Shown here one piece after another: positions 22,897-52,044 of a stretch of 64,000 nucleotides of DNA. The position numbers and the translations under genes are program-made. The DNA lies in the NCBI GenBank assembly GCA_964512835.1, contig CAZELA010000001.1, positions 233,372 through 297,371 of the forward strand, in the 5' to 3' direction. Below the pieces are notes generated by a model. It made no database searches, was not told where the DNA came from, and saw only the letters and a program-made list of their open reading frames with translations. Within the stretch, counting starts at the first letter, position 1. Every line of letters begins with the position of its first letter. This stretch comes from an uncultured Candidatus Saccharibacteria bacterium. GTDB taxonomy: Bacteria > Patescibacteriota > Minisyncoccia > Phycocordibacterales > UBA2100.

Positions 22897-23202
22897 ATGG
22901 AAGCGGCAGCAACGATAGTCCAACGGCTCAACGACCTGATCATCAGGCCATTGATCCTGTTGGTATTTGCCGGCGGGTTCTTCCTGTTCATGTGGGGGTT
23001 GGTTGTGTTTTTGTGGAATTCGCGCGAAGGGGAAGTTGCGACCGAGGGTAAGCAGCACATGCTCTGGGGTATCGTGGGCATGTTCGTGATGATCTCGGTG
23101 GGCGGAATTCTTTCCATCATCCTCAACACCTTTGGAATCAATCAGACGAGTGCGACCGATACGAGTAATGCGCAGGGGTTCAGCAATGTGCAGTTTAGGT
23201 AA
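22897..23202 (+). CDS. small membrane protein, paralog E
   Basis: Two TM; MFVMISVGGILSIILNTFG homologous to B and D. Confidence 0.45.
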   Translation: MEAAATIVQRLNDLIIRPLILLVFAGGFFLFMWGLVVFLWNSREGEVATEGKQHMLWGIVGMFVMISVGGILSIILNTFGINQTSATDTSNAQGFSNVQFR

Positions 23203-23362
23203 GAAACGGGGACTCGATCACGAATAAAATCCACGCCGTCGCGATCAAGGGGGACTCGGCCAAGCGCTCGCTTCGTCGCCGTCGCGACGAAGCTCCGTTC
23301 GGCCCTGCTCGCGCATCCCCGTCTACTGACGGGGCCCCAGCGCTCGCTTTCTCGTCCCCGCC

Positions 23363-23410
23363 TTTGCTCTACCAAATACAAAAGATCGAGGCATGCCTCG
23401 ATCTTTTGTA
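23363..23410. terminator. long perfect palindrome / bidirectional terminator
   Basis: CAAATACAAAAGATCGAGGCATGCCTCGATCTTTTGTATTTG (19-bp stem). Confidence 0.7.
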
Positions 23411-23416
23411 TTTGTG

Positions 23417-23498
23417 TGGGCAAGGGGGGACTCGAACCCCCAATCCTTACGGAACCAGTTCCTAAGACTGGCGCGTATACCAATTCCGCCACTTGCCC
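23417..23498 (-). tRNA. tRNA-Leu (anticodon TAG), type II, CCA not encoded
   Basis: Manual fold: acceptor GGGCAAG/CTTGCCC, anticodon loop CTTAGGA, long variable arm, T-arm GGTTCGAGTCC. Confidence 0.8.
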
Positions 23499-23573
23499 AT
23501 CTGCACGATATTACACCTTTTCGGCTCGACCGAGCTATCGGTAACTCGCGCCGTAACGCACTATTTTCCTTTG

Positions 23574-23594
23574 CCAATTCCGCCACTTGCCCAT
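23574..23594 (-). repeat. exact 21-bp copy of the tRNA-Leu(TAG) 5' end in its upstream leader
   Basis: CCAATTCCGCCACTTGCCCAT also at 23480-23500; preceded on the tRNA strand by a TATAGT -10-like box. Confidence 0.7.
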
Positions 23595-23628
23595 TCGCGG
23601 CACACTATAGCACCAATTGTATCGAATG

Positions 23629-23657
23629 TTGACAATGGTATTTCAACATGCTATTAT
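23629..23657 (+). promoter_or_regulatory. consensus sigma70-type promoter for the DEAD-box helicase gene
   Basis: TTGACA, 17 bp, TATTAT; about 125-nt leader before the ATG at 23789. Confidence 0.6.
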
Positions 23658-23788
23658 CCACACACCAACGTACTCGTATTCTTTTGTCTTGAGCTACCTC
23701 TCGAGACCGCCCCGTAGTCGAATTGTGGGGTCGAGGAAAGCTCGAGGCGCTGGAATTAACGACTAGTGCCGTATATTCGGCTTACTAT

Positions 23789-24997
23789 ATGTACAAACAG
23801 TACTCACGTTCGGGCGGCGGTTCTCGCTCCCGATTCGGCGGACGCTCCGGCGGCCGCGCAAATTATCCGAAAAGTCGCGCACCGCGACAGATGGGTCAAT
23901 ACATTGATCCGGCTCGCTTTGTAAACAAGGCGACAGTCACCGAGGTGCAGGACGTATTCGTGCCGCAGCATAACTTCGCGGACTTTGACGTAGCAGACAG
24001 CCTGAAAAACAACATCATCAAGAAAGGCTACGTAACTCCGACTCCTATTCAGGACCATGCGATCCCGCATGTGCTCCATGGTGAAGATGTGCTCGGTATT
24101 GCTGATACCGGTACCGGCAAGACCGCAGCGTTCCTCATTCCGCTCATCAACAAAGTATTGAATGACCGATCGCAAAAGGTATTGATTATGGTGCCGACCC
24201 GTGAACTCGCGACTCAGATCGAGGACGAGTACTGGGGATTCGCAGACCACATGCGCATCGGCGCGGTGACCGTTGTAGGCGGTGCGAACATCAATAAGCA
24301 GATCCAGACGCTCCGACGACGACCGAACTTTGTAATCGGTACACCGGGACGACTGAAAGATCTCATGAGCCAGGGCGAGCTCGACCTCTCGGACTTCAAC
24401 ACTGTTGTTCTCGACGAGGCAGACCGCATGCTCGACATGGGTTTCATCCAGGACATGCGATTCATTCTTTCGCACATGCCGACGGAGCGGCACACGCTGT
24501 TTTTTACAGCGACGCTCTCGCGCGACATCGAACGAATGGTGCACGACTTCCTCAATAATCCGGTCCAGATCAAGATCAAGACGCGCGATACTGCTGCGTC
24601 AGTGGATCAGGACATCGTGAATGTGCGCGGTCGTGAAAAGATCGACGTGCTGCAGGAATTGCTCGCTCAGCCGGAATTCGAAAAGGTAATAGTCTTCGGA
24701 CGTACCAAACACGGCGTCGAAAAGCTTGCAAAAATGCTCGCAAAGAACGGATTCAAAGCTGAGTCCATTCACGGCAACAAAACGCAGAATAAGCGTGACC
24801 GCGCGCTCACATCGTTCAAAAAGGGACAGGTAAATATCCTCGTTGCGACAGACGTCGCTGCCCGAGGTATCGACGTCTCGGACGTATCGCACGTGATCAA
24901 CTACGATCAGCCGACGACCTACGATGACTATGTACACCGCATCGGCCGAACAGGCCGCGCAGGCAAGGCGGGAAAGGCGCTGACATTTGTCGGCTAA
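23789..24997 (+). CDS. DEAD-box ATP-dependent RNA helicase with N-terminal RGG-rich segment
   Basis: Motifs ADTGTGKT, PTRELA, DEAD (VLDEADRML), SAT, HRIGRTGRAG; N-terminus SRSGGGSRSRFGGRSGGR. Confidence 0.85.
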   Translation: MYKQYSRSGGGSRSRFGGRSGGRANYPKSRAPRQMGQYIDPARFVNKATVTEVQDVFVPQHNFADFDVADSLKNNIIKKGYVTPTPIQDHAIPHVLHGEDVLGIADTGTGKTAAFLIPLINKVLNDRSQKVLIMVPTRELATQIEDEYWGFADHMRIGAVTVVGGANINKQIQTLRRRPNFVIGTPGRLKDLMSQGELDLSDFNTVVLDEADRMLDMGFIQDMRFILSHMPTERHTLFFTATLSRDIERMVHDFLNNPVQIKIKTRDTAASVDQDIVNVRGREKIDVLQELLAQPEFEKVIVFGRTKHGVEKLAKMLAKNGFKAESIHGNKTQNKRDRALTSFKKGQVNILVATDVAARGIDVSDVSHVINYDQPTTYDDYVHRIGRTGRAGKAGKALTFVG

Positions 24998-25006
24998 ACA
25001 GCACGA

Positions 25007-25045
25007 CGTTGGAAAAACGACCCCTCAAGAGGGGTCGTTTTGCAT
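25007..25045. terminator. bidirectional terminator
   Basis: AAAAACGACCCCTCAAGAGGGGTCGTTTTGC. Confidence 0.7.
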
Positions 25046-25117
25046 TGGTATACCTTATGTATCGCTGGTAATCGAAAAAGATACCGAAGCGATCAGGAGG
25101 GTCGTGCAGCGTGACGC

Positions 25118-26392
25118 CTAGGCCGCGCTGTCGGGCGTCTGCGGCATTCCTTTGATGAGTGTAGCCACCTCGTGCCACAGCGATGTCGGGTCCGACATCT
25201 GTTTCTCGGCAAGTGCCCAGTCGAACTGCCCGCGAACATACTTGCGGCTGTCCTGGATGCCTTCTTCGTGCGGTAGGTTCGACATACCGATCTCGTCGCC
25301 GTAGTACATGATGGGCGAGCCGGGGAGTGAGTAGAGGAGTTTGAATGCGCGTCGCATACCCTCGCGGTCTCCGCGAAACACCTGACCGACCCGCGCCGAT
25401 GTAAACGGTGTCTTTTTGAAGTGGAACAATCCATCCGGATCGAGGAAGGCGACGAGTGCCGATCGGATGCCCGGTTCAAGTGTGGCGAGCGAAATCTCGT
25501 CGTGATTGCGTAGGAATATTGCCCAGGAACAATTATCGGGAATATCCGATGTGGCATCTACCATCTCTTGCACGGCGAGCGTCTCGCTCTTTTGGAGTGC
25601 GAGCCACATTTGCTCCATAAGATTGAAGTGGTAGGCCATATGACACTCGTCACCGTCGCCGAAATACTTCTTTGTATCCTCTACACTCAAGTGTGCCTCG
25701 GACAGGAGAATCACGTCCGGGTATTCTTTTTCAAGGGCGGCTCGTAGTCGCTTGAGCACCGCATGCGTCTCGGGCAATCCGCGACAATTGGTGCCGTCGC
25801 GCTTTACCAGGAATGGGGCAGCATCGAGCCGGAATCCGCTCACGCCCATATCTGCCCAGAATTTCATTACTCCAAACATTTCATTGAACACCTCGTCGTT
25901 GTCCCAATTGAGATCCGGTTGCTCGGGATAAAACGTGGCGAAATAGTAGTCGCCCGTTGTCTCGTTTGGCATCCATACGGTATCGCCAAACATGTTTTGA
26001 GCGAGCGGGAACTCGGTTCCCGTTTCCGACCAGAGATAGTAATCGCGTTTGGGATTGGAGCGTGAGGAGCTCGCTTCGATAAACCACGGGTGTTTGTTGC
26101 TCGTGTGATTAAGAACGAGATCGAGGATGATACGTATGCCGCGACCGCGCGCTTCGCGCACGAGCCGTTCCATGTCGTGGATGGTACCGAGGTCTTCGCG
26201 CACATTGCGGTAGTCCGAGATGTCGTATCCGTCATCAATCATCGGCGACGGGTAGTGGGGCAGGATGTGGAGACAGTTGATACCGAGTGCCTCAAAATAC
26301 GGCAGCTGCGCCGTAAGGCCGTTCAAATCTTTGTTGAACTTGTCGACATACAGCTCGTATATTTTTGCTGATTTCCACCAGTATTCGGCCAT
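25118..26392 (-). CDS. GH13 alpha-amylase-family glycoside hydrolase (catalytic domain only)
   Basis: GH13 regions DLVLNHTS, GFRLDAA, EAH...; start taken at MAEYWWK. Confidence 0.7.
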   Translation of the reverse strand: MAEYWWKSAKIYELYVDKFNKDLNGLTAQLPYFEALGINCLHILPHYPSPMIDDGYDISDYRNVREDLGTIHDMERLVREARGRGIRIILDLVLNHTSNKHPWFIEASSSRSNPKRDYYLWSETGTEFPLAQNMFGDTVWMPNETTGDYYFATFYPEQPDLNWDNDEVFNEMFGVMKFWADMGVSGFRLDAAPFLVKRDGTNCRGLPETHAVLKRLRAALEKEYPDVILLSEAHLSVEDTKKYFGDGDECHMAYHFNLMEQMWLALQKSETLAVQEMVDATSDIPDNCSWAIFLRNHDEISLATLEPGIRSALVAFLDPDGLFHFKKTPFTSARVGQVFRGDREGMRRAFKLLYSLPGSPIMYYGDEIGMSNLPHEEGIQDSRKYVRGQFDWALAEKQMSDPTSLWHEVATLIKGMPQTPDSAA

Positions 26393-26435
26393 CGGTCGAT
26401 TATAGGGCACTTCACCGTGGGCGGCGCTTGTCAGT

Positions 26436-27002
26436 GTGGTCTCGCAATGGTACACCTGCCAGCAGTTCAGGGAGGATGAATCGATGAAAATGCTGAGACG
26501 CTGGTTCTCTACATTCGTTGATAGTGCAGTTGTGATCGACGTGGACTACTCCAAGCCCCTCTATATACCAATAGGGGCGAGCGGTTTGAGCCGGCATCGG
26601 CCAGTTGGAACTGGCCGTATGTCGCTGCTGCCGCATAGTTTTGAATTGCGTGAGATGCCGCTGGGCATGACGTACGACGGATATTTCGACGCGCATGGCG
26701 ATGACATGATGTGCGATGCGGCCGTTCTCGACGGCATCGTGGCGTACGTCACGAAGGATGGTTTGGATGGGCGCTCGGTCGAACGGCGAATGTTCAAGTT
26801 GTTCGGCGACTTCCGCGGGCAAGTTTTTTTCCTGGGGACGTCGTTTACGTCGCCGGATAATGGGGTACATGTACCGTATTTGAATGTGCGGACAAACATG
26901 CCGGCCCTCAGGTACGCGTGCCCGTCGCATCATCCGATGAATCACGATTTCGACGTGCGCGTGTGTCACCTTGCACCGGTGCAACCAATCGTCGGCCCGT
27001 AG
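26436..27002 (+). CDS. hypothetical protein (strand assignment uncertain)
   Basis: 188-aa ORF with GC3-rich codons, convergent with cspA onto a shared terminator; a 199-aa antisense ORF also exists. Confidence 0.3.
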   Translation: MVSQWYTCQQFREDESMKMLRRWFSTFVDSAVVIDVDYSKPLYIPIGASGLSRHRPVGTGRMSLLPHSFELREMPLGMTYDGYFDAHGDDMMCDAAVLDGIVAYVTKDGLDGRSVERRMFKLFGDFRGQVFFLGTSFTSPDNGVHVPYLNVRTNMPALRYACPSHHPMNHDFDVRVCHLAPVQPIVGP

Positions 27003-27021
27003 GTCCGTCACTGTTCAATAC

Positions 27022-27055
27022 AAAAGGCCCCGTCTTACGACGGGGCCTTTCATGT
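27022..27055. terminator. bidirectional terminator
   Basis: AAAAGGCCCCGTCTTACGACGGGGCCTTTCATG. Confidence 0.7.
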
Positions 27056-27062
27056 AGATCGC

Positions 27063-27263
27063 TTAGATCTTGCTCACTTTGAGAGCGTTCGGGCCCTTCG
27101 GGCTTTCACCTACTTCAAAGCTTACTTTGTCTCCCTCGCGGAGGTCGTTGAACTGAACGTTCTGAAGTTCGTTCATGTGGAAAAAGAGATCCTTTTCCTG
27201 TCCGTTGACGGAGATAAATCCGAATCCCTTGTCGGTGAGTCGGGCGATGGTTCCTTCTTGCAT
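27063..27263 (-). CDS. cspA: cold-shock protein (CspA family)
   Basis: 66 aa; RNP1-like KGFGFI and FFHMNEL. Confidence 0.9.
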   Translation of the reverse strand: MQEGTIARLTDKGFGFISVNGQEKDLFFHMNELQNVQFNDLREGDKVSFEVGESPKGPNALKVSKI

Positions 27264-27580
27264 GGCAATGAGAATATCTTGAATAGATTCCCGTGAGGGA
27301 AATCAATACAGGACTGGAGTTTAGGTCGATCCCTGCTTCTCTGGATCAGCTCTGGTTGATACGTAAAAGATACCATGTGAAAAATGATGTGTCAATGAAT
27401 CGTGATTTGTTTGAGGCTGATTCCGAGATGTGGTGCCGGCAAGTATCGAGATGCGACATCGACTACGCTCCATGAGTGGTCAGGGATATTTTCCTCGCCG
27501 CCGCTCGGAAAATTCCACGATTCTGCCTTGCCTGTCGCAAAAGCTTTTGCAACATGGCTCCGGCTCGCACAAAGCGAAAA
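27264..27580 (-). promoter_or_regulatory. probable long cspA 5' leader and promoter region (no convincing ORF)
   Basis: About 300 nt without coding signal between the upstream terminator and the cspA ATG; csp genes classically have long structured leaders. Confidence 0.35.
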
Positions 27581-27584
27581 AACC

Positions 27585-27612
27585 TGGCGCAGGCCAGGTT
27601 TGTTTCGTCTTT
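27585..27612 (-). terminator. terminator of the low-GC hypothetical gene
   Basis: AACCTGGCGCAGGCCAGGTT hairpin with T-run on the minus strand. Confidence 0.6.
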
Positions 27613-27643
27613 GTGCGCCCAATGGGACGTTATCGGAACGGAA

Positions 27644-28168
27644 CTATTGGCAGGAGTCACGCAGATCGCCAGTTAGCCATGTTGCCGATTTTTTTGCCTC
27701 ATCAATATTTCTCAGCTGTAAATTATTTGGAACACCTGCTTGATGGCGCTTTTCTTCGAACTGAGTTTCAGTAAATGCCTGCATCGTTTGACCCGAGTGC
27801 GGGTCAATAACCCACCAGTAGGTTATCGATTCATCGGGGATGCAATTTGAACAATCCTCCATGCGTGGGTGCGGTTTCTCCAGCGGGTGTGTCTTCGCAA
27901 GAACATAGTCGTCATCCCACGCAATTTCAAATATGGATTCGGGAATGAACCCCCCAGCATCACCAATATCCGTGCAATTTACATATACAGCATATGCACT
28001 GCTCCTGTTCAGTTTGCAATGTGAATTTAACTGATATTCATAGTCTGCTAAACCGGGTCCAAAACCACATTTAAGAATAGTGCTGTAAAAAGAGAAACAA
28101 ATAAAAATCCACACGATGCTGGCGCCAATCCAAAAATACTTCGGATTCCGAACGATGGCTTTCAACAT
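27644..28168 (-). CDS. hypothetical membrane-anchored protein, low GC
   Basis: 174 aa, N-terminal TM, Cys-containing; about 45% GC versus 55-58% in flanks. Confidence 0.45.
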   Translation of the reverse strand: MLKAIVRNPKYFWIGASIVWIFICFSFYSTILKCGFGPGLADYEYQLNSHCKLNRSSAYAVYVNCTDIGDAGGFIPESIFEIAWDDDYVLAKTHPLEKPHPRMEDCSNCIPDESITYWWVIDPHSGQTMQAFTETQFEEKRHQAGVPNNLQLRNIDEAKKSATWLTGDLRDSCQ

Positions 28169-28196
28169 AGGAAAACTATGTCACGAAACTGAAAAC

Positions 28197-28390
28197 TTGT
28201 CTGTGCGCCCACTAGGATCCTCCCAAGCGCTCGTATTTTGCCGTCGCAAAATACTCCGCTCGGGCCTGGTTTTGCTATCCCATCTGCTGATGGGCCCCAC
28301 GCAAAACCTTTCGAATCCTGACGCTCGCTTCGCTAGCTGTGGGCGCACTTGTAAACAGAAAACGGCCCTAAGGCCGTTTTCTGATTCAAG
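28197..28390 (-). repeat. tRNA-Lys trailer element
   Basis: Terminator AAAACGGCCCTAAGGCCGTTTTC (28359-28382), inverted acceptor copy (28338-28349), hairpin GTATTTTGC-GACG-GCAAAATAC (28233-28254), direct copy GTGCGCCCAC.AGGAT (28203-28217). Confidence 0.6.
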
Positions 28391-28463
28391 TGCGCCCACC
28401 AGGATTCGAACCTGGGACCGTTCGCTTAAGAGGCGACTGCTCTACCAGCTGAGCTATGAGCGC
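28391..28463 (-). tRNA. tRNA-Lys (anticodon CTT), CCA not encoded
   Basis: Manual fold: acceptor GCGCTCA/TGGGCGC, anticodon loop CTCTTAA, T-arm CCAGGTTCGAATCCTGG. Confidence 0.8.
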
Positions 28464-28560
28464 AACGCAGGCACTATACCGTATTTATCGGAAATTTGAA
28501 GGGTGTACCGACGGAGAATTCCGTACAATGCTCGGTATGATCGGTCCTCGGTCCATACGC

Positions 28561-29478: not shown

Positions 29479-29521
29479 GTGTATCCGCGTATCAGGTCTG
29501 TCTACATCCGACTGTCCAAAA

Positions 29522-29550
29522 GAAATTCGCGCGACCCGATTTCGGGTCGC
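29522..29550. terminator. bidirectional terminator
   Basis: CGCGCGACCCGATTTCGGGTCGCGCG. Confidence 0.6.
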
Positions 29551-29579
29551 GCGACGGGCAAGAAGCCACTGTCACGGCA

Positions 29580-31140: not shown

Positions 31141-32004
31141 ATGCTCCCGACTACAGGGCTCGTATTCGCGCTTCTGACCGCCGTCTCTGCCTCGGTCTAT
31201 GCGCTTACTGCTCGTTATGTAATACGGGGTGATTCCAACCCGCTCGCGTTTTCAATCTTGTTTACCGTGTGCTCCGCGATCATCTCCTGCGGTCTCTTTT
31301 TTGTGGTGCCGCCGGACTTTTCTTCAGCATCCTGGTCGTATGTGCCGCTTTTAATCTGTGCGGGTATTTTGTACGGCTTGTACGACGCTACACAGTTCTC
31401 GGCTCGCAAACACCTTGAGGCATCAAGTTTTTCTACAATTCTTCAGACTGCGCCTGTAATTGCGTTTATCCTCTCCGTCCTTATTTTGAAGGAGGGGATT
31501 ACCGCCTTGAAACTTGCCGCGGTCGCTCTCATCATCACGGGCAATATCGTTGCGATATACAAATCCCACGGTCGCATAACGCGAACAGGTCTCGCGTTCG
31601 GCCTTACTGTCGCGGCGGTCTCGGGTGTAGCGTACGTCGTCGATAAAGTAACGTTCCCGTACATCCCGTTTCTGCTGTACTCCATCACGGTATATGCTAT
31701 TCCCGCTATAATCGTGTCTTCAATCTATGCGGCAAAAGGTGGCACGGTTGCCTCGGTGCGCGCAGAGTGGCGACAGTTCTCATGGAGGATTCCCGTGATT
31801 TCGCTGCTCGGAGTTACGACATATTACTTTTTGTATCGTGCTTTTCAGGTTGCGGACGCTTCGGTGGTCGTGCCGATTACATCATCATCAACGATACTCA
31901 CGGTCCTTGGTGGCATTTTTCTGCTCGGCGAAAAGGGAAACATGCTGAGGAAAATCATTGGCGCAGTGTTTGTTTTGCTTGGCGTATTGCTGCTCCGGCT
32001 CTAA
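31141..32004 (+). CDS. EamA/DMT family transporter
   Basis: 10 predicted TM helices in two 5-TM halves. Confidence 0.65.
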   Translation: MLPTTGLVFALLTAVSASVYALTARYVIRGDSNPLAFSILFTVCSAIISCGLFFVVPPDFSSASWSYVPLLICAGILYGLYDATQFSARKHLEASSFSTILQTAPVIAFILSVLILKEGITALKLAAVALIITGNIVAIYKSHGRITRTGLAFGLTVAAVSGVAYVVDKVTFPYIPFLLYSITVYAIPAIIVSSIYAAKGGTVASVRAEWRQFSWRIPVISLLGVTTYYFLYRAFQVADASVVVPITSSSTILTVLGGIFLLGEKGNMLRKIIGAVFVLLGVLLLRL

Positions 32005-32009
32005 GTGAC

Positions 32010-32190
32010 GCCACGAGGGGTGTGCACCCGCCCATAACGCCCTTTGTTTAACTGGGCAGACCGTCGCGTGCGACGAGCTGGAATTACGAACACTACAATT
32101 GAGGCCACAGCGGGAGTTGCACCCGCCCATAACGGTTTTGCAGACCGTCGCGTTGCTACTTCGCCATATGGCCAGCGAAAGCTAACGCCG
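32010..32190 (+). repeat. two diverged tandem copies of an about 90-bp unit upstream of tRNA-Leu(TAA)
   Basis: GCACCCGCCCATAACG at 32027 and 32121; GCAGACCGTCGCGT at 32064 and 32143. Confidence 0.6.
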
Positions 32191-40953: not shown

Positions 40954-41036
40954 GCGTCGATGGCGGAGTGGTCAATCGCACTTGGCTGTAAACCAAGCGA
41001 CTTCGGTCTGCGCAGGTTCGAATCCTGCTCGGCGCA
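40954..41036 (+). tRNA. tRNA-Tyr (anticodon GTA), type II, CCA not encoded
   Basis: Manual fold: acceptor GCGTCGA/TCGGCGC, anticodon loop CTGTAAA, long variable arm, T-arm GCAGGTTCGAATCCTGC. Confidence 0.8.
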
Positions 41037-41230
41037 CAAACGCAAAAAGAACCCAATTGGGTTCTTTTTGCGTTTGTGCAGCACGAGAGCAGAGTGCTGA
41101 GCACTCTGCGGCAGGATTCGAACGCCGGAGCGATGTGAGCCCAGTAGGGCGAACCGCGAGGCGGTGCCCAGACAAACTTTTGCGACGGCAAAAGTTTAGT
41201 CGAGGGAGAATCCTGCTCGGCGCACAAAGT
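41037..41230 (+). repeat. tRNA-Tyr trailer element
   Basis: Terminator (41045-41070), palindrome GCAGAGTGCTGAGCACTCTGC, inverted T-arm-like CAGGATTCGAAC, hairpin AAACTTTTGC-GACG-GCAAAAGTTT (41174-41197), direct copy GAATCCTGCTCGGCGCACAAA (41208-41228 versus 41020-41040). Confidence 0.65.
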
Positions 41231-41276
41231 GCAAAAAGCCCCTAACCGGGGCTTTTTGCGTGGTACGATTTACCGC

Positions 41277-42579: not shown

Positions 42580-42650
42580 GGGCGATTAGTTTAGTGGTAG
42601 AACAGCGGTCTCCAAAACCGCTAGTGGGGGTTCGATTCCCTCATCGCCCG
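42580..42650 (+). tRNA. tRNA-Trp (anticodon CCA)
   Basis: Manual fold: acceptor GGGCGAT/ATCGCCC, anticodon loop CTCCAAA, T-arm GGGGGTTCGATTCCC. Confidence 0.8.
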
Positions 42651-42652
42651 CA

Positions 42653-42820
42653 ATGATCAAAAAAGACGCGCAAGCGTCTTTTTTGCCAAACATTGCGAGG
42701 CGATGAGGGAATCGAAAGGCGGAGGCGGGGCACCCGCGTACCCGCGGGTCGCCGAGCCAGGGCAGTGACCACTTGCCCGAAGGGCTTAGTGAGTTACGCC
42801 GCTTCCCTCATCGCCCGCAA
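42653..42820 (+). repeat. tRNA-Trp trailer element
   Basis: Terminator AAAAAAGACGCGCAAGCGTCTTTTTT, inverted copy GGCGATGAGGGAATCGAA (42699-42716), direct copy TTCCCTCATCGCCCGCAA (42803-42820); the two copies can pair as a 13-bp stem. Confidence 0.6.
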
Positions 42821-43242: not shown

Positions 43243-43251
43243 CGAAATTGT

Positions 43252-44876: not shown

Positions 44877-44905
44877 GAGACTCCGCTCAGCAAAAATCGC
44901 CGGCT

Positions 44906-45850
44906 CTACCGGCGATTTTTGTTTGGCACTGCAGTGTGCGAGATGTGCGCTTTCACGCAACGCTCAATTGCCGCGTAGGCAGTTGGGTCGAACCAGTGAA
45001 TGTCTTTGTTCCGGTTCCAGTAGCCCGTTTGTTTACGGGCGTATCGCCGGATCTCGCTCAACAGGGTGGTGATCAATTGTTCTTTTGTGATCTTGTTTTC
45101 GAGCAGGTCCGCGAGTGAGCGGTATTCGAGACCGAGCTCGCGCATTCGCTTGTACGAGACACCCTGCTTTTTGAGGCGCTTAGCTTCGGCTACCATACCC
45201 GCCTTGATACGTGCGAGCAGCCGGGTCCGTATTTTTTTCTCCAGTACGCTCGCGCTCGGAGAGATTCCGAGCCAGAGCGGCGCATACAACGCCTCGGGGT
45301 CTAACCTCGGAGATTCTGGGGGCTGTGCTGAAGCGGCGATTTCGAGCGCTCGAATGAGGCGCACGGGATTATTACGCTCGCTCGGTGTGTCCATGGCTTG
45401 TGCGCGCTTCGCATCCTTTTTCTTCAGCATGGCGAACAGCTGCGCCGCGGTTTTTCCCGTAAGTGACGCTCGCAATTTCGGATTTGGTGCGACGTTCGGC
45501 AGATCGACTCGGCCCATAAGTGCATCGATGTAGAAACCGGTGCCTCCGACTACGATGGGGAGCTTGCCGCGTTTGACGATATCGGCGATCGCTCTGTGTG
45601 CGGCCTTTGTGTAATCGCCGGCACTGAACACACGCTTCGGCGAGGCGACGTCGAGCAGATGATGCGGAATACCCGCCATCTCCTTTTTCGTTACCTTGCC
45701 GGTGCCGATATTGAGACCTTTGTATACTTGTCTCGAATCCGCGGAGACAATCTCGCCGTTGAGCTTTTTGGCCAGACGCACGGCAAGGCCGCTTTTGCCC
45801 GAAGCGGTGGGACCGACAATAACGACAACCCTGTGCGGCTGCATTTGCAT
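44906..45850 (-). CDS. miaA: tRNA dimethylallyltransferase
   Basis: P-loop VVIVGPTASGKSGLAV...SADSRQVYKGLNIGTGK; start at MQMQPH inside the longer track ORF. Confidence 0.85.
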   Translation of the reverse strand: MQMQPHRVVVIVGPTASGKSGLAVRLAKKLNGEIVSADSRQVYKGLNIGTGKVTKKEMAGIPHHLLDVASPKRVFSAGDYTKAAHRAIADIVKRGKLPIVVGGTGFYIDALMGRVDLPNVAPNPKLRASLTGKTAAQLFAMLKKKDAKRAQAMDTPSERNNPVRLIRALEIAASAQPPESPRLDPEALYAPLWLGISPSASVLEKKIRTRLLARIKAGMVAEAKRLKKQGVSYKRMRELGLEYRSLADLLENKITKEQLITTLLSEIRRYARKQTGYWNRNKDIHWFDPTAYAAIERCVKAHISHTAVPNKNRR

Positions 45851-45874
45851 GCGCGGAAGCGTACAATATTTCCT

Positions 45875-46228
45875 ATGGTTTACCACCCCGATCATCCCGA
45901 GCGGCGAACGGTTTTTTTTGATGATGAGTGCGAACTGTGCGAGGACGCCGCCGTGCGACTGCAGAAGGAAATCGGTGTATCCATCAGGGGAGCGTCGTCG
46001 GACACCGGACAGTTCATCGACAAAGAGACGCTCGTACGCGAACTGCATGCAATGGACGAGAACGGCGTGATGCATACGGGGATAGATGCCGTGATCGTGA
46101 TCCTGCGATGGCATCCGCAGGGGAAATACGTGGCGCCGATTGTGGCATTACCCGGTATAAAGCAGCTCGGGGCACTCGTATATCGAATAGTCTCTGCCAA
46201 CCGCCACCGTTGGTCGAGAAAGGGCTAA
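45875..46228 (+). CDS. DCC1-like thiol-disulfide oxidoreductase (DUF393) family protein
   Basis: VFFDDECELCEDA (D-x-C-x-x-C) near the N-terminus. Confidence 0.55.
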   Translation: MVYHPDHPERRTVFFDDECELCEDAAVRLQKEIGVSIRGASSDTGQFIDKETLVRELHAMDENGVMHTGIDAVIVILRWHPQGKYVAPIVALPGIKQLGALVYRIVSANRHRWSRKG

Positions 46229-46248
46229 TGCGGTAGTATTGTCCGCGG

Positions 46249-46330
46249 GCCGGAATGGCGGAATTGGTATACGCACACGACTCAAAATCGTGCGCCTCAC
46301 GGCTTGTGGGTTCGAGTCCCACTTCCGGCA
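46249..46330 (+). tRNA. tRNA-Leu (anticodon CAA), type II, CCA not encoded
   Basis: Manual fold: acceptor GCCGGAA/TTCCGGC, anticodon loop CTCAAAA, long variable arm, T-arm GGGTTCGAGTCCC. Confidence 0.8.
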
Positions 46331-46507
46331 CACAAAATCAAAAAGCAGGGCATGTCCCTGCTTTTTGATTTTGTGGCACGGAAGTGGGACTCGAAAGCGA
46401 GTCCTGGGCCCCCGCGAGCACGTGGGGATGGACGAGCAGGGCAGAGAAACTTTTTAACGCGACGGCGTTAAAAAGTGTTCTTGGCCGAGTCCCACTTCCG
46501 GCTTTTT
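46331..46507 (+). repeat. tRNA-Leu(CAA) trailer element
   Basis: Terminator palindrome (46335-46371), inverted copy GCACGGAAGTGGGACTCGAA (46376-46395), hairpin ACTTTTTAACGC-GACG-GCGTTAAAAAGT (46449-46476), direct copy GAGTCCCACTTCCGGC plus TTTTT (46487-46507). Confidence 0.65.
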
Positions 46508-46560
46508 ACAATATGCGCATGTGTGGCATAATCGCCCCGGCAACATTCGGGAGGGCACAC

Positions 46561-46923
46561 ATGGCACTACGGGTTCCTGAGCCGGGTGACGAGATCGACG
46601 GACGGGTCATCGACGAAGTCGGTGAGCCGAGGGCGATCAAGGATCGTCACAGTATTGTCGTTGTACGAATGAGCGACAGAAAGTACGAGATCGTGTCGAT
46701 CACGGAGTTCCGGGCCGGTGAACAGAAGATGCGGTACTGGGAAACCGATAATGAACTCATACGCAGGGCGCTCGATACCGCGCTCGACTTTCCGGTCGCC
46801 GCAAGCGGCTCGGTGGGCGAGCTTCGCGTATGGGGCAAGACGGTGTTCGGTAATTTTTCAGCCGTAATCTTCTACGACGCCAAGAAAACCAGCGGTGTAC
46901 AGGATTCGTTCACGTATACCTGA
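46561..46923 (+). CDS. hypothetical protein
   Basis: RBS GGGAGGG; 120 aa. Confidence 0.4.
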   Translation: MALRVPEPGDEIDGRVIDEVGEPRAIKDRHSIVVVRMSDRKYEIVSITEFRAGEQKMRYWETDNELIRRALDTALDFPVAASGSVGELRVWGKTVFGNFSAVIFYDAKKTSGVQDSFTYT

Positions 46924-46991
46924 ATATGCACAGACTGCACACGGGGCCGCTTCAATGCGGCCCTTTTATTTTGGGATATAATCCGCGTCAT

Positions 46992-48002
46992 ATGGCAGGC
47001 GGCATGATGGATTCAATATATTGGGTAGAGGTAGATCGCATCGTTCCGAACCCGTACCAGCCTCGTAAAAGCTTTGACGAGGTCGCGCTTGCGTCACTCG
47101 CCGAAAGTATCCGTCAGTACGGCGTTTTGCAGCCGCTTACCGTTACCAAGAAGGAAACCGAACGCCCCGGTGAAGGTATTGCTGTTCATTACGAGCTGAT
47201 CGCGGGTGAGCGCCGTTTGCGCGCGTCGAAACTCGCAGGGCTTACCACGGTGCCTGTCGTGATCCGAACGGCAGAAGACACGGATCAAATGAAGCTCGAG
47301 CTTGCGATCATCGAAAACCTGCAGCGCGAGGACATTAATGCGCTGGACCGCGCAAAGGCTTTTAAGCAGCTCGTCGATTTGTTCGGACTGCAGCACAAAG
47401 AGATTGGTGCGCGTGTCGGCAAAAGCCGCGAGTACGTATCGAATACGCTCCGTATTTTGGCGTTGCCGGAGAGTATGCAGACGGCACTCGAGCATGGCGA
47501 GATCAGCGAGGGTCACACGCGACCGCTGCTCATGCTTGCTGACCGACCCGAAGAGCAGGAGACTTTGTTCAAAGAAATCGTATTGCGACGATTGACTGTC
47601 CGCGACGCGGAAGCGCTTGCGCGACGCGTTGCGATCGAAAAGGTCCGGCACAAGGCATTAGTGTCGCCCGATCTCATGTCGCTCGAAAAGCAGCTGTCAG
47701 AGCGCCTTGGCACGCGTGTGCGTATCGAAAAGAAGGACACCGGCGGCAAACTTCATATTGATTTCTTTTCTCCGGAAGACCTGACGAATCTCTGTATCGC
47801 ACTCACTGCTCAAGTAAACGCCGCACAGGCCACAGCTGCGCCCGCGATCGCTGCAGCGGTCACCGAAGCTGTCGCGTCACCGGTACAGCCGACCGAAGCT
47901 CCCGTAGAGACGGAAACAATGCCTGAGCCGCAGCCCGAAAAGACCCCTGAAGTGACAAAAGAGGAGGAGGATCTGTACTCGATTAAGAATTTCAGTCTCT
48001 AG
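46992..48002 (+). CDS. parB: ParB/Spo0J partition protein (no parA nearby)
   Basis: ParB box LQPLTVTK...YELIAGERRLRASKLAGL; HTH; Pro/Glu-rich C-terminal tail. Confidence 0.85.
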   Translation: MAGGMMDSIYWVEVDRIVPNPYQPRKSFDEVALASLAESIRQYGVLQPLTVTKKETERPGEGIAVHYELIAGERRLRASKLAGLTTVPVVIRTAEDTDQMKLELAIIENLQREDINALDRAKAFKQLVDLFGLQHKEIGARVGKSREYVSNTLRILALPESMQTALEHGEISEGHTRPLLMLADRPEEQETLFKEIVLRRLTVRDAEALARRVAIEKVRHKALVSPDLMSLEKQLSERLGTRVRIEKKDTGGKLHIDFFSPEDLTNLCIALTAQVNAAQATAAPAIAAAVTEAVASPVQPTEAPVETETMPEPQPEKTPEVTKEEEDLYSIKNFSL

Positions 48003-49547
48003 TTAGACTGATTTTCGTTGCTCCTGCGCAAGCGCCGCACGGATGTGCTTTTTTGCCATGTTTGTTTTTGCGATGTCGTGCCACTTGCGCGACGGTTTGG
48101 CCGAGGCCTTGGTGATTACCTCTACCATGTCGCCGTTTCGAAGTGCGGTATCGAGCGCAACCATTTTTCCGTTCACACGAGCGCCTGACATGCGGTTGCC
48201 GAGGTCGGAGTGCACCGCATAGGCAAAGTCGATCGGCGTCGCTTCCATCGGAAGGTCGATAACGTCGCCCTTTGGTGTGAACACGAAAACGCGATGACTG
48301 AAAAAGTCGCTCTTGAGTGTATCGAGATATTCGCCGGATGCCTCGCCGCCGTGTTGTACGTGTGCGAGTTCCTGCACCCACTCGGGCATGAGCGGCTGCA
48401 GTTCATCCTCTTCCAGAGTCGGTGCTGGTTTGCGCGCGCCGAATCCCGGGAAGAATTGACGTATCCACTCGAGTCCGCCGCGCTTACTGTCGCCGGCCTG
48501 CACGTCTTTGTACGTGAGGTGTGATGCGATGCCGTAGAGCGCTTCGCGATGCTGTGCTTCGGTGCGGAGTTGCATCTCAAGTGCACCGCCGTCGCCGGTG
48601 TAGACCGTCGTGTGAATTGACTGGTAGCCGTTCGGTTTTGGGAACGCAATGTAGTCCTTGATCTTGCCCGGCACCGGTCGCCAATGACCGTGAATGATCC
48701 CGAGTGCCGAATAACAATCAGCGACAGTGGGGAAGATGATGCGCAGTGCCAAGATGTCGTAGATCTTAGTTATGTCCCAGTCTTTGCGTTCGAGTTTTCT
48801 GTAGAGGCTATACACGCCCTTAATGCGCGCTTCGGTGCGGAAATTACGGATGCCGGCATCGGCGAGCTCGCGTTTGAGATCATGCTCGGTCTTTTCGAGG
48901 CGCTTTTCGTTTTCGTTGCGGCGCTCCTTTAATAGCTCGCGGGTCTTTTCGTACTCCTTAGGATGTGCCCACGGGAACGCGGCGTCTTCGAGTTCCTGCT
49001 TTGCCACGGACATACCGAGTCGATCGGCGATCGGTGCATAGATCTCGAGTGTCTCGAGTGCGATACGGGTACGCTTCTCGATTTTCGGTACGTGCTCAAG
49101 CGTGCGGGCATTGTGGAGGCGATCCATCAATTTAATGATGAGAACGCGGATGTCTTTGGCGGTAGCCGCAAACAGTTTGCGAAGCGATTCGGTATGGCGT
49201 TCCATGCCGCGATAGCGCAGTGTGCCGAGCTTCGTGACGCCTTCGACAAGAACGAGCACGTCTTCGCCGAATTGCTCGGATATGGTCTGCGGCTTCACGC
49301 CTGCATCCTCGATGGTGTCGTGTAGTAGGCCCGCTGCAATTGCTGCGGCATCCATACCCACCTGCGCCAGATAAAATCCGACTTCTGCCGTGTGTACAAA
49401 GTACGGGTCGCCTGAGTATCTTTTTTGCGGGCGGTGTGCCTCTTCGGCAAAGTCGTAGGCCCGGGTTACGAGCGATACGTCCTCGGGCGACTTCGACGTC
49501 ATCTCTGAAAGGATGGCTTTCAGCGGCCTCGGAGTGACGGATGTCAT
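48003..49547 (-). CDS. rel: bifunctional (p)ppGpp synthetase/hydrolase, short RelA/SpoT family
   Basis: HD domain HDTIEDAG, synthetase domain, TGS domain; 514 aa, no ACT domain. Confidence 0.85.
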   Translation of the reverse strand: MTSVTPRPLKAILSEMTSKSPEDVSLVTRAYDFAEEAHRPQKRYSGDPYFVHTAEVGFYLAQVGMDAAAIAAGLLHDTIEDAGVKPQTISEQFGEDVLVLVEGVTKLGTLRYRGMERHTESLRKLFAATAKDIRVLIIKLMDRLHNARTLEHVPKIEKRTRIALETLEIYAPIADRLGMSVAKQELEDAAFPWAHPKEYEKTRELLKERRNENEKRLEKTEHDLKRELADAGIRNFRTEARIKGVYSLYRKLERKDWDITKIYDILALRIIFPTVADCYSALGIIHGHWRPVPGKIKDYIAFPKPNGYQSIHTTVYTGDGGALEMQLRTEAQHREALYGIASHLTYKDVQAGDSKRGGLEWIRQFFPGFGARKPAPTLEEDELQPLMPEWVQELAHVQHGGEASGEYLDTLKSDFFSHRVFVFTPKGDVIDLPMEATPIDFAYAVHSDLGNRMSGARVNGKMVALDTALRNGDMVEVITKASAKPSRKWHDIAKTNMAKKHIRAALAQEQRKSV

Positions 49548-49622
49548 CCATTGATACTACTCTGAGACCCGGTTCGGTCAAATCACATGAACTGAAAAGC
49601 GGCGCTCGGAGCGCAGCTTTCC

Positions 49623-49733
49623 TTACTTCTTTTTCTTCGCCGTCTTCTTGTCGGATGATGCCCCCTCCAGCTTATGCGGGTTGTGCATGGGACATGTTTT
49701 TTGACTACAGCGCTCCGGAATCGTTTTTGGTCA
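49623..49733 (-). pseudogene. displaced duplicate of the topA 3'-terminal coding segment
   Basis: Minus-strand translation between stops: PKTIPERCSQKTCPMHNPHKLEGASSDKKTAKKKK versus the topA C-terminus ...TKTIPERCSQKTCPMHNPHKLEGVAKKKK; 29-bp identical core CCCTCCAGCTTATGCGGGTTGTGCATGGG. Confidence 0.7.
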
Positions 49734-49829
49734 CACGTTCGTGTCGTCCCGTCGGACGCCACGACGTGCGACCCCGGCTCAGGATCGCACGCTGCTGCGT
49801 GCGATATCCTTCCGCCTCACAAAAACGAA

Positions 49830-49851
49830 ACACGAGGCGCAGGCCTCGTGT
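49830..49851 (-). terminator. topA terminator hairpin abutting the stop codon
   Basis: ACACGAGGCCTGCGCCTCGTGT then TTTCGTTTTTG on the minus strand. Confidence 0.6.
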
Positions 49852-52044
49852 TTACTTCTTCTTTTTGGCGACACCCTCCAGCTTATGCGGGTTGTGCATG
49901 GGGCATGTCTTTTGGCTGCATCGTTCCGGGATCGTCTTTGTGCCTTCCATCATGAGCGAGTCACATAGCTTGCAGCGAGCTCCCGTGGGTCGGGCTTTGA
50001 TTGCATTCTTACACTTAGGGTAGTTGGAGCACGCGTAGAATAAACCGAATCGTCCGCGTCGTTCCACCATCTCTCCGTCGCTGCAGATATTGCACTTCAC
50101 GCCGGTCTTTGCCTTCGCTTCCTGTTCCGGGTCTTGCTTCACGAATTTGCACTTAGGGAAGTTCGAGCAGGCGATGAACGGTCCGAATCGGCCTTCGCGC
50201 AGGATCAGTTTGCCGCCCTTCGTTTCGCCGCAATCGGGACAGACTTCGCCGATTTCCTTGGGTGGCGGGATCTCACTGCCGTCCTCGCGTCGCGCACCAA
50301 GACACTCGGGGAATTTCTTGCACGACATAAACCGGCCCGCTTTGGAGAGTTTGTATTCCATCGGACCCTTACAGATCGGACAGGGGAATTCCTCGGGGGC
50401 ATCACCCATGCCGGTGATCTTTGCGATCTTCTCCTTGCCTTTGACCGCTTTCTTGAACGGTGTGTAGAAATCTTTGAGAGTTTTCTCGTATTCTCGAGTG
50501 CCGTCAGAGATCTCATCGAGTTCGTTCTCCATCTCCGCGGTGAACGTGTCCGAAATATACTCACCGAAATTATTCTCAATGAACGTGGACACAACGTCGC
50601 CGGTTGCCGTCGGGATCATGGTGCGACCCTGCTTTTCCACATAGCCGCGCGTCTCGAGTGTGCGGATGATCGACGCATAGGTCGACGGTCGACCGATGCC
50701 GCGACTTTCGAGCTCCTTCACAAGACCTGCCTCTGAATAGCGTCCCGGCGGCTGCGTTTCCTTGCCTTCGGTGTGCGCTTCTACGAGATCGAGCGGATCG
50801 TGCGCTGCAACCTTCGGCAGCTCCACGTCTTCGCCGCGGGCATCCGGATCTGCTGCGAGCCAGCCGTCGAATGTAACGCGGGAGCCGTTGGCGGAAAAAT
50901 CGGGGATGGTTGCACCGCTGACGTTTGCGATGATCTTCGTTCGAAGGGTCTTCGCGTCGGCCATTTGACTCGAGAGTGCTCGGGCACGGATGAGTGTATA
51001 GAGCTTCTTCTGCTCTTCGTTGTTGCCGCATGTTGCTTTGTGCGGATTGGTCGGACGTACAGCTTCGTGTGCCTCCTGCGCATTCTTGCTTTTTGATTTG
51101 TATTCACGTGCCTCTACATACGCTGCGCCGAATTCGCTTGTAGCAACTGCAACGAGCGCCGCCTGCGCTTCCTTGGCGAGGTTCGGACTATCGGTTCGCA
51201 TATAGGTGATGTGACCGGCTTCGTAGAGTTTCTGCGCGATACCCATCGTGCGGGACGGAGAGAACCCGAGCCGGGTCGACGCGGCCTGTTGCAGTGTGGA
51301 TGTTGTGAACGGTGCACGCGGCGAGCGTTTTGCTTCGGACTCATCAACGGAAATGACTTTCCAATCTTTTGTGGTCGCCGCCTTGTAGATGCGCTCGGCC
51401 TCTGCCTCGGTCTTCGGCTCCTCGACGCAGGTAACCGTGAATTGCTCTTTTTTCTTTGTTTTGACATCGGCGCTCACCACCCAAAACTTCTCGGGGACGA
51501 ATGCACGGATCTCGCGCTCGCGCTCCATAATGATGCGGAGTGCCGGCGATTGCACGCGGCCGGCCGACAAGCCATACCGCACCTTTTTCCATATGAGGCC
51601 GGAGAGGTCGTAGCCGAAGAGGCGGTCGAGGACGCGACGGGCTTCCTGGGCGGATACGAGTTGCTCATCGATCTTGCGGGGGTGGGCAATCGCTTCCTGT
51701 ACGGCATTCTCCGTAATCTCGTGAAATACGATGCGTTTCGGCTTTTTGAGTCCGATCGTAACGGCCAAATGGTGCGCGATCGCTTCGCCCTCGCGGTCTG
51801 GGTCTGTTGCAAGAATAACCTCAGTCGAGCGACCGGCAATGTCCTTCAGTTCATCGATGATTTTCTGTTTTTCTTTCACGATCTGATAGCGCGGCACAAA
51901 ACCGCCCTCGATATCGACGGCGTCTTTATTGCTTTTCGGCAGATCGCGTATGTGGCCCACCGATGCACGGACCGTGTATCCGTGACCCAGATACTTTTCG
52001 ATCGTTTTTGCTTTGGCGGGGGATTCAACGATGACTAATTTCAT
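49852..52044 (-). CDS. topA: DNA topoisomerase I
   Basis: Toprim plus topo IA core, C-terminal C4 zinc ribbons, Lys-rich tail; 730 aa. Confidence 0.95.
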   Translation of the reverse strand: MKLVIVESPAKAKTIEKYLGHGYTVRASVGHIRDLPKSNKDAVDIEGGFVPRYQIVKEKQKIIDELKDIAGRSTEVILATDPDREGEAIAHHLAVTIGLKKPKRIVFHEITENAVQEAIAHPRKIDEQLVSAQEARRVLDRLFGYDLSGLIWKKVRYGLSAGRVQSPALRIIMEREREIRAFVPEKFWVVSADVKTKKKEQFTVTCVEEPKTEAEAERIYKAATTKDWKVISVDESEAKRSPRAPFTTSTLQQAASTRLGFSPSRTMGIAQKLYEAGHITYMRTDSPNLAKEAQAALVAVATSEFGAAYVEAREYKSKSKNAQEAHEAVRPTNPHKATCGNNEEQKKLYTLIRARALSSQMADAKTLRTKIIANVSGATIPDFSANGSRVTFDGWLAADPDARGEDVELPKVAAHDPLDLVEAHTEGKETQPPGRYSEAGLVKELESRGIGRPSTYASIIRTLETRGYVEKQGRTMIPTATGDVVSTFIENNFGEYISDTFTAEMENELDEISDGTREYEKTLKDFYTPFKKAVKGKEKIAKITGMGDAPEEFPCPICKGPMEYKLSKAGRFMSCKKFPECLGARREDGSEIPPPKEIGEVCPDCGETKGGKLILREGRFGPFIACSNFPKCKFVKQDPEQEAKAKTGVKCNICSDGEMVERRGRFGLFYACSNYPKCKNAIKARPTGARCKLCDSLMMEGTKTIPERCSQKTCPMHNPHKLEGVAKKKK

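Follow-up and report, generated by a model that had tools for sequence, protein, structure and literature searches.

Small structured non-coding cassettes with an inverted target copy behind tRNA, tmRNA and topA genes of Paceibacteria: a candidate family of site-specific insertion elements

The stretch of 64,000 nucleotides (nt) analysed here (the window; contig CAZELA010000001.1 of assembly GCA_964512835.1, positions 233,372 to 297,371, from an uncultured bacterium deposited as Candidatus Saccharibacteria) carries seven copies of a non-coding cassette of about 170-210 bp. They lie behind five of the seven transfer RNA (tRNA) genes and behind topA, the seventh being a decayed copy. Judged by miaA-based loci, the window belongs to the Patescibacteria/Paceibacterota, near Kaiserbacteria and Adlerbacteria; its closest relatives show 69-74% miaA identity, and the topA gene of the closest, L003, is 91% identical (L-numbers label the related-genome loci and metagenome contigs that were compared). 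Read in gene orientation, the six strong copies share one order of parts, Xe-T-X'-P2-P3-Xd. Xe is the 3' end of the live gene, and T is a terminator-like hairpin composed of an A-tract, a GC-stem and a U-tract. X' is an inverted copy of the gene 3' end, P2 an arm with internal loops and an AG(C/U)A (AGYA) tip loop, P3 an arm with a GACG tip loop, and Xd a displaced, direct second copy of the gene 3' end. The plus-strand cassette of tRNA-Leu(CAA) may serve as the example. Its Xe (46313..46330) extends from C56 of the T-loop to the discriminator and contains a 17-nt exact repeat with 46486-46502; T (46331..46375) is the terminator-like hairpin that caps a helix, H1, treated below; X' (46376..46395) is the inverted tRNA 3' end with T54-T55 included; P2 (46397..46437) has the tip G-AGCA-C; and P3 (46440..46486) is followed by Xd, the displaced tRNA 3' end (46487..46502). 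Direct repeats measure 17 nt at tRNA-Leu(CAA), 21 nt at tRNA-Trp, 16 nt at tRNA-Lys and 67 nt at topA, and that at tRNA-Tyr comprises 54 nt with the terminator included. Single-sequence folds agree between the loci (z-scores -5.1 to -8.6). Identity among the window copies is no higher than 46-68%, and their P3 stems have no sequence in common. T has the GC-rich hairpin and U-run of a rho-independent terminator; P3 lacks this arrangement and is followed by GAGCGCTTGG, AGTCGAGG and similar sequences, not by a U-run. The element proper is Xe-T-X'-P2-P3, and Xd is a displaced host fragment left to decay. The gene itself remains intact because the cassette supplies a new 3' end and a new terminator.

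Five of the P3 tips had been singled out in the original prediction as C-GACG-G hairpins trailing genes, and all five were found, in gene orientation, behind tRNA-Leu(TAG) (23270-23293, minus strand), tRNA-Lys (28233-28254, minus), tRNA-Tyr (41174-41197, plus), tRNA-Leu(CAA) (46449-46476, plus) and topA (49745-49758, minus). Those linked to tRNAs lie 118-137 nt downstream of the respective gene. The window holds no further GACG-loop hairpin with a perfect stem of at least 5 bp, and first-order Markov simulations of the window confirmed that the number exceeds chance: five were observed against a mean of 1.1 for stems of at least 5 bp, and four against none in 200 simulations for stems of at least 9 bp. 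The supposed rarity of GCGACGG was mistaken, as this string occurs 40 times on both strands of the window and CGACGG 106 times, where 77 would be expected; the hairpin context alone is special. A presumed diverged relative, CGTCG-CGTG-CGACG, had been described as repeated twice near tRNA-Leu(TAA). It occurs once (32062-32075; CGTCGCGTGCGACG), inside a degenerate partial duplicate of the opposite-strand tRNA-Cys, and the site matches neither of the two covariance models introduced below; the two copies of the 14-nt string GCAGACCGTCGCGT (32056-32069 and 32140-32153) consist of tRNA-Cys sequence. This partial duplicate (31990-32100, minus strand) lies directly downstream of the intact tRNA-Cys gene, shows exact repeats of 17 and 14 nt and stands outside the cassette family. 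Two cassettes had been overlooked, the decayed one at 27464-27576 and that of tRNA-Trp, the latter because its P3 loop is GAA instead of GACG.

The six window copies served to build a covariance model, R1, which at E<0.01 detected 34 further copies in 1.24 Mb of related genomes and retrieves the whole module, with E values down to 1e-27; over 46381-46500, in the tRNA-Leu(CAA) cassette, it scores 114 bits. With a second covariance model (R2), 53 copies were found, seven in the window and 46 in 28 of 80 related genomes, which is a patchy distribution. R2 also matched at least 101 copies in metagenome contigs preselected by a pattern of the P3 base. According to the covariance models the family thus comprises at least 154 copies in genomes and metagenomes of Paceibacteria, members of the Candidate Phyla Radiation (CPR). 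Because one covariance model retrieves them all, the P3 hairpins are homologous arms of one related cassette family, contrary to the original view that their likeness does not reflect descent. Nor is the hairpin a free-standing tetraloop motif, since it is always accompanied by the AGYA arm, the inverted target copy and the duplicated gene 3' end. Its association with gene trailers is real; the cause is the insertion of a cassette at a fixed point of gene 3' ends. The idea that the hairpins are coincidental, or ordinary terminators that share a loop, could appeal to the abundance of CGACGG in a genome of 55% G+C, but four stems of at least 9 bp against none simulated, the missing U-run after P3, the position of the real terminator-like hairpin (T) upstream and the recovery of the entire module by covariance models reduce its probability to a negligible level. 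At gathering score, Rfam 15 matched only tRNAs in the whole window, and at E<=10 it gave nothing credible over the tRNA-Leu(CAA) cassette. One cassette searched with blastn against phage and plasmid collections had no match; in viral contigs a loose pattern retrieved 120 chance stretches, none of which matched the model, and a specific pattern retrieved nothing. The literature search found no paper describing such a family; on insertions in tRNAs of Patescibacteria it turned up a single paper, which deals with group I introns at position 35/36. To judge from Rfam 15, from the collections of phages and plasmids and from the literature searched, the cassette family is undescribed.

Selection on structure, as the original prediction had suggested, is evident from strong covariation in two alignments. 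In the first (A3, 37 copies) 82% of the cells pair, compared with 58% after shuffling and 35-44% after sliding, and the covariation statistics proposed as a check reveal double changes at 40 of 43 pairs. In the second (A7), made of 97 distinct metagenomic copies among the matches listed, 86% of the cells pair versus 64% in shuffled controls. Of the 37 copies from other genomes, 28 have the GACG loop closed by C-G or U-A, and the commonest P2 tip is CAGYAG. G-U cells outnumber A-C cells (70 versus 25), and at one position 95 of the 97 copies among the matches listed keep a G-U pair; the sense strand is therefore the strand that folds. Once the tRNA end is added to the folded sequence, the minimum-energy structures have X' paired to the live 3' end of the tRNA in a helix of about 40 bp (H1), which has T at its tip and stands beside P2 and P3. 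For 104 tRNA-linked copies among the matches listed, the energy of pairing between X' and its own tRNA end is -20.9 kcal/mol, whereas controls reach -14.3 kcal/mol (p 1e-14). Even where Xd has diverged, in 53 of the listed copies, the match of X' to the tRNA persists (p 3e-6), and no match to Xd is found (p 0.09). X' thus keeps tracking the live target while Xd decays. A three-way junction closed by X':Xd (P1) had served as the conserved core in building R1 and was demoted because X' follows the live tRNA end and not Xd. X' also includes T54-T55, two bases past the boundary of the duplication, and therefore copies the native target across the insertion point. In the cassettes of tRNA-Tyr, tRNA-Lys and tmRNA (transfer-messenger RNA), a side hairpin interrupts X' exactly at the boundary of acceptor and T-stem. 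In the distant genomes L021, L034 and L056, X' consists only of CTTGTG, which complements a CACAAG trailer behind the tRNA.

Such conservation might mean that the cassette is a trailer RNA of the host, co-transcribed with the tRNA or tmRNA, in which case the duplications would be by-products of recombinational spread. Conceivable roles include 3'-end processing, protection from exonucleases, back-up of termination, and mimicry or sponging of the acceptor/T-arm. The conserved G-U pair, the tandem G-A internal loops and the constant tetraloops are what one would expect of an RNA, X' remains complementary to the live tRNA end, and its side hairpin at the acceptor/T-stem boundary yields a tRNA-like junction. 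Some cassettes lie within tRNA clusters or 8-22 nt behind tRNAs that lack a terminator, and are therefore co-transcribed there; orthologous cassettes are also kept in genomes whose miaA is about 50-70% identical to that of the window. The patchy distribution over 28 of 80 genomes, with differences between close relatives, speaks against this reading, however, and tRNA processing does not explain a topA cassette with a duplicated and recoded coding segment. Moreover, pairing with X' would unfold the tRNA, no promoter-like site precedes the modules within 40-50.5 kb of the window, and the strong terminators located before X' in the window speak against high expression from the tRNA promoter, although some copies, with gaps of 8-22 nt, have no terminator. 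We therefore regard a host-functional trailer RNA as an unlikely explanation, albeit one to be taken seriously.

Nearly every copy lies 8-110 nt downstream of a tRNA gene on the same strand, and at least 17 tRNA specificities are represented; the seeming exceptions in genome loci are truncated tRNAs at contig ends. tmRNA is targeted at no fewer than four loci (L246, L233, L217 and L251), with the same layout as behind tRNAs, and topA at the same codon position (G-T-K-T-I-P-E) in at least five genomes (the window, L074, L229, L218 and L277). Among the matches listed, 46 of 106 tRNA-linked copies contain exact repeats (15-27 nt) of the upstream tRNA 3' end, and in 29 of the 46 listed copies with a repeat of at least 12 nt the repeat starts 19 nt before the tRNA end, that is, at C56. 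The boundary falls between GGTT and CGAATCC in the T-loop, and GTGAC precedes the repeat within the module. The insertion point is thus fixed, at T55/C56 of the T-loop in tRNA and tmRNA and at the codons G-T-K-T-I in topA.

A few loci depart from this pattern. The cassettes at L214 7997-8190 (identical to L276) and L221 4586-4845 lie behind non-coding stretches of 110-260 nt that have no Rfam match. In L214 this stretch shows the long-range pairing GCTTTAGAAC...GTTCTAAAGC, and it may be an unannotated small RNA gene that serves as a target. At L263 7812-8057 a group I intron (51 bits) directly precedes the cassette, and this locus is probably an intron-containing tRNA missed by ARAGORN; intron-containing tRNAs of this sort have been described for Patescibacteria (PMC13011429). 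The same contig encodes a tRNA-Ser(TGA) (L263 3341-3498, minus strand) in which 80 nt of P2-P3 replace most of the T-loop. Acceptor and T stems are perfect, there is no spare 3' end, and the tRNA model is the only Rfam model that matches. This is either a dead gene or a tRNA that needs repair at the RNA level. The 48 orphan copies include no further interrupted tRNA besides that of L263.

Comparison of relatives revealed the unoccupied state of several targets. L003 has intact empty sites behind tRNA-Tyr and topA, whose terminators and flanks are orthologous to those that follow the distal copies in the window, and the tRNA-Trp site of L002 is empty as well. Presence and absence of the cassettes are thus polymorphic between relatives. 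Tandem arrays also occur: L213 contains three identical copies with a 134-nt period, and further arrays were found in L258, L259, L235, L034 and L056. Such arrays are expected if each insertion regenerates its target. The core of the tRNA-Leu(CAA) cassette in L003 is 89% identical to that of the tRNA-Tyr cassette in L001; X', T and Xd are wholly different, and the homology stops exactly at the borders of P2-P3. Core subtypes do not strictly follow the tRNA type, and differing subtypes occupy the same tRNA. Targets of this kind, namely tRNA, tmRNA and gene 3' ends, are typical of islands and prophages with tyrosine integrases, and the cassettes could be scars of these, of which only the ends next to attL and attR are left and in which the hairpins are incidental or terminators. 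The identity blocks of 17-22 nt that start in the T-loop would fit, as would the regenerated target with a displaced fragment (PMC4383910). Scars would hardly share a compact covarying fold, constant loops and a near-constant size without gene remnants in at least 154 copies, and binding sites on double-stranded DNA would conserve sequence instead of pairing. No integrase was detected among the 20 neighbouring genes tested, and repeats of tRNA ends far off in the window, which would be a sign of large islands, are absent. An origin as island scars is thus very improbable.

The topA cassette (minus strand) differs from the others in that its target is a coding sequence. Xe (49852..49940) comprises the last 29 codons and the stop codon of the live gene, the proximal copy. 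It is followed by T (49828-49853), an 8-nt X' (CGTTTTTG, 49820-49827) that is complementary to the start of the duplicated segment, P2 (49776..49816; tip C-AGCA-G) and P3 (49729..49773). Xd (49623..49728) is the ancestral 3' end in its displaced position; it retains an intact reading frame, and L003 is collinear with its tail and terminator. The peptides encoded by the proximal (live) and the distal (displaced) end are almost the same, and the nucleotide differences fall mainly at synonymous positions: in the window all nine differences over 67 nt are synonymous, and in L229 the two copies have about 65% nucleotide identity, no long identical block, and codon switches such as TCA/AGT for Ser and CGT/AGA for Arg. 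These recoded copies therefore argue against simple homologous Campbell integration and against target duplication by fill-in. Campbell integration of the RecA type, considered as the general mechanism, was rejected for topA, given the copies without a long identical block (about 65% identity in L229); it may apply to the topA copy of the window, which has a 30-nt identical block. The idea that X' arose by copy-back extension from the terminator hairpin suits the tRNAs and fails in topA, because there X' matches the start, not the end, of the 90-nt segment. A function of X' as primer-binding site for mature tRNA was also discarded, as X' complements the genomic trailer and not CCA.

The distal topA frames bear on a further alternative, according to which Xe-T-X'-P2-P3 is removed from RNA like an intron, by a small ribozyme or by host enzymes, and Xd serves as a 3' exon too. 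X' would then align both junctions, each of which is followed by the same sequence. The distal reading frames are intact in four of five genomes and diverge mainly synonymously, the sequence that pairs with X' does follow both junctions, and in the tRNA-Ser(TGA) of L263 P2-P3 sits inside the T-loop without a spare 3' end. Introns are, moreover, common in Patescibacteria (PMC13011429). Against this stands the divergence of Xd from the tRNA in over half of the listed tRNA-linked copies, where its pairing with X' no longer exceeds background, and the distal topA copy of L277 has begun to decay, with damaging changes (Cys to Ser). The spare 3' end is absent in only one of about 150 copies among the matches listed, and no Rfam ribozyme or intron matched. 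About 90 nt would also be small for a splicing ribozyme. Inspection by eye for known small ribozymes showed that the junctions fit no hammerhead core (CUGANGA/GAAA order) on either strand, and Rfam gave no match. Removal at the RNA level is thus improbable.

The reading that we favour, with about an even chance of being right, is that the hairpins belong to a family of small, non-autonomous, site-specific insertion cassettes of Paceibacteria that act through a folded single strand. The cassette would act as the single-stranded sense strand, either DNA or RNA. Pairing of Xe with X' would form H1, capped by T, as a duplex replica of the target site; alternatively, X' might serve as a guide. The arms P2 and P3 with their constant loops could be recognised by a recombinase or nuclease that acts in trans and whose gene lies elsewhere, and this enzyme would exchange strands at the T-loop position. 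Thanks to the spare 3' end and the terminator that come with the cassette, an essential target would survive, and the original 3' end (Xd) would be pushed downstream and then decay. A more specific proposal can be made only tentatively. According to it, X' (8-22 nt) and the P2/P3 scaffold program insertion at matching T-loops (55/56) or in topA through the trans-acting enzyme. The cassettes would then be non-coding mobile elements of a new class, in which the nucleic acid of the element itself determines the target, and this would amount to re-targetable integration guided by base pairing in CPR bacteria.

Several observations weigh against the insertion cassette as favoured here. None of the 20 neighbouring genes tested, and none of the annotated genes of the window, encodes a recombinase or transposase, and no free or circular form was seen. 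Signs of recent dispersal were not seen either, the window copies being merely 46-68% identical. Orthologous cassettes partly cluster by tRNA type and therefore fit a long vertical residence, possibly with a domesticated role. Shared cores could result from gene conversion between paralogous cores without transposition, and homogenisation of palindromes at the DNA level could maintain the complementarity of X' and Xe without selection. Finally, the conserved G-U pair, tandem G-A loops and constant tetraloops are RNA-like, and the active form might be an RNA with a host function.

Among known systems, tRNA and tmRNA islands (Islander-type, with the P4-like T-loop sublocation) resemble the cassettes in their targets from the T-loop onward, the restored gene and the displaced fragment of 17-22 nt. 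According to PMC4383910, such islands as a rule leave the target regenerated and a fragment of it displaced. The cassettes show the regenerated target with its direct repeat and the polymorphism of empty sites, but no integrase of their own, which such islands encode as a rule beside the target; they are gene-less, measure 170-210 bp, and carry an inverted target copy and two structure-conserved arms. Phage 21 and e14 integrate into icd with an element-borne replacement of the 3' end. The alternative 3' coding end of the topA cassette, with its mainly synonymous differences, is similar, whereas the cassette comes without phage or integrase and joins the replacement segment to a structured non-coding module, in which X' is complementary to the initial 8-9 nt of that segment.

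At the integron attC site a folded single strand recombines, and its inverse core pairs with the core shared by the primary target. The cassettes are like attC in their location at gene 3' ends, the folded strand with covarying stems, the arrays, and an open reading frame (ORF) flanked by modules at two loci. They differ in a 'core' of 8-22 nt that is target-specific and in their T-loop targets. RYYYAAC/GTTRRRY cores occur in neither alignment A3 nor A7; the outer helix of the cassettes corresponds to the tRNA 3' end, the CACAAG trailer or, in topA, CAAAAACG. Moreover, the neighbours tested contain no integrase domain, and neither intI nor an attI platform was found, as would be needed for an integron array. 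The CTX phage attP, too, is used in recombination as a folded single strand. Two inverted target copies in one strand mimic a double-stranded site in this and other Xer-dependent elements (PMC3442271), which is also how the cassettes might work, and attC and the CTX phage attP would be their closest mechanistic analogies. The target of the cassettes is not dif, however, and no phage genome is attached.

The ends of IS200/IS605, their gene-less derivatives, the palindrome-associated transposable elements (PATEs), and repetitive extragenic palindromic (REP) elements are small, hairpin-bearing and strand-specific, and IS608 uses guides of 4 nt. PATEs have subterminal hairpins, cause no target duplication and go with a Y1 transposase in the genome. 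Guide RNAs are used by IS110 (bridge RNA) and by TnpB/IscB (omega RNA). What the cassettes would share with IS200/IS605, IS110 and TnpB/IscB is a target read by pairing, through a two-hairpin scaffold with a target match of about 8-22 nt. Their complementary stretch is longer than the 4-nt guides of IS608, and they duplicate the 3' end of the target; hairpins and strand asymmetry are present beside this duplication. No transposase was present among the genes tested, and Rfam showed no match to known guide RNAs. Compared with REP elements and bacterial interspersed mosaic elements (BIMEs), the cassettes lack palindromes of conserved sequence within a genome, as the 46-68% identity of the window copies indicates. 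Group I introns of Patescibacteria sit at position 35/36 of the tRNA anticodon loop (PMC13011429), whereas the cassettes insert at T-loop 55/56 and do not match RF00028. We rate the cassettes as site-specific integrative elements that restore their target and that have been reduced to a non-coding, structured module with an inverted target copy.

If the favoured interpretation is correct, a bacterial genome of about 1 Mb harbours dozens of insertion cassettes without genes, and each of these would rewrite either the final 18 nt of an essential tRNA gene present in one copy or the C-terminal end of topoisomerase I. This would account for partial tRNA duplicates and for contig breaks beside tRNA genes in CPR assemblies. 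It would also represent a minimal system for target recognition by a folded strand or a guide-like inverted copy, with a possible use in programmable insertion, and would offer markers of recombination and horizontal exchange in unculturable organisms. The more than 150 members would define a new family of structured nucleic acids, whose covariation already suffices for an Rfam-type model. Even as a trailer RNA, the family would be an abundant new RNA class tied to tRNA and tmRNA biogenesis in the CPR.

The remaining window cassettes vary the common layout in detail. At tRNA-Tyr (plus strand) the first part is Xe (41020..41036). T (41037..41076) is a diverged homologue of the original terminator at 41231-41259, and the 54-nt repeat has 76% identity. 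X' (41077..41122) is interrupted by its side hairpin; P2 (41123..41163; tip C-AGTA-G) and P3 (41167..41206) precede Xd and the original terminator T0 (41208..41259), T0 being an orthologue of the terminator at the empty L003 site. The tRNA-Trp cassette (plus strand) scores 64-68 bits. It consists of Xe (42633..42650), T (42651-42695) and X' (42696-42716), P2 (42724-42758) and P3 (42761-42800), and Xd (42801..42820), which repeats the tRNA end over 21 nt at 95% identity. In L001 a run of about 110 N (3994-4103) lies exactly where a tRNA-Trp cassette would be expected and is either a mask or a gap in the scaffold that the repeat has caused. Contig ends often fall within or beside a cassette (those of L023, L039 and L010, and of several metagenome contigs), so that CPR assemblies seem to be broken up at tRNA genes by these repeats.

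The tRNA-Lys cassette (minus strand) comprises Xe (28391..28408), T (28348-28390), X' with its side hairpin (28310-28347), P2 (28268..28308; tip C-AGCA-G), P3 (28222..28264) and an Xd (28204..28220) with two substitutions relative to the tRNA. An ORF with a DUF3997 domain (27644-28168) separates it from the decayed cassette (27464..27624, minus strand). The latter retains a pseudo tRNA-Lys 3' end (27614-27624), T (27570-27613), P2 (27525-27564) and P3 (27484-27516), whose loop is not GACG, and scores 22 bits with R1 and 39.5 bits (E 3e-6) with R2. At L210 2985-4110 two identical cassettes lie 842 nt apart behind tRNA-Ser, with an ORF of 183 amino acids between them and a repeat that runs 36 nt past Xd. 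This layout and that of tRNA-Lys and DUF3997 in the window are possibly cargo-carrying versions. At L261 6400-6680 the 5' two-thirds of a type-II tRNA are fused to a degenerate cassette, and the same tRNA follows intact 17 nt on.

At tRNA-Leu(TAG) (minus strand), Xe (23417..23434) is followed by T (23373-23414), a partly degenerate X' (23348-23367), P2 (23307..23347; tip C-AGTA-G), P3 (23258..23304) and Xd (23246-23257), beyond which, down to 23207, GCGACGGC ... CGAGTCCCCG appears to be an older remnant. The first 21 nt of this tRNA gene are repeated exactly 94 nt upstream (23480-23500 and 23574-23594), and both copies are preceded by a -10-like box (TATAGT and TAATAT). It appears to be an insertion of another type, located at the 5' end of tRNA-Leu(TAG) and bringing a promoter. 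Just beyond the cassette, two small ORFs (21938-22873) encode domains resembling pilins of type IV secretion systems (T4SS), one of them with a clear match (E 1.5e-8). A ParB-like gene adjoins the tRNA-Leu(CAA) cassette, and a search for other contigs encoding it has none on record. The miaA homologue of the window (44906-46114, minus strand) encodes 402 amino acids, and its IPPT domain begins at residue 129; the N-terminal extension is lineage-specific, because most distant homologues match only from about residue 80-95.

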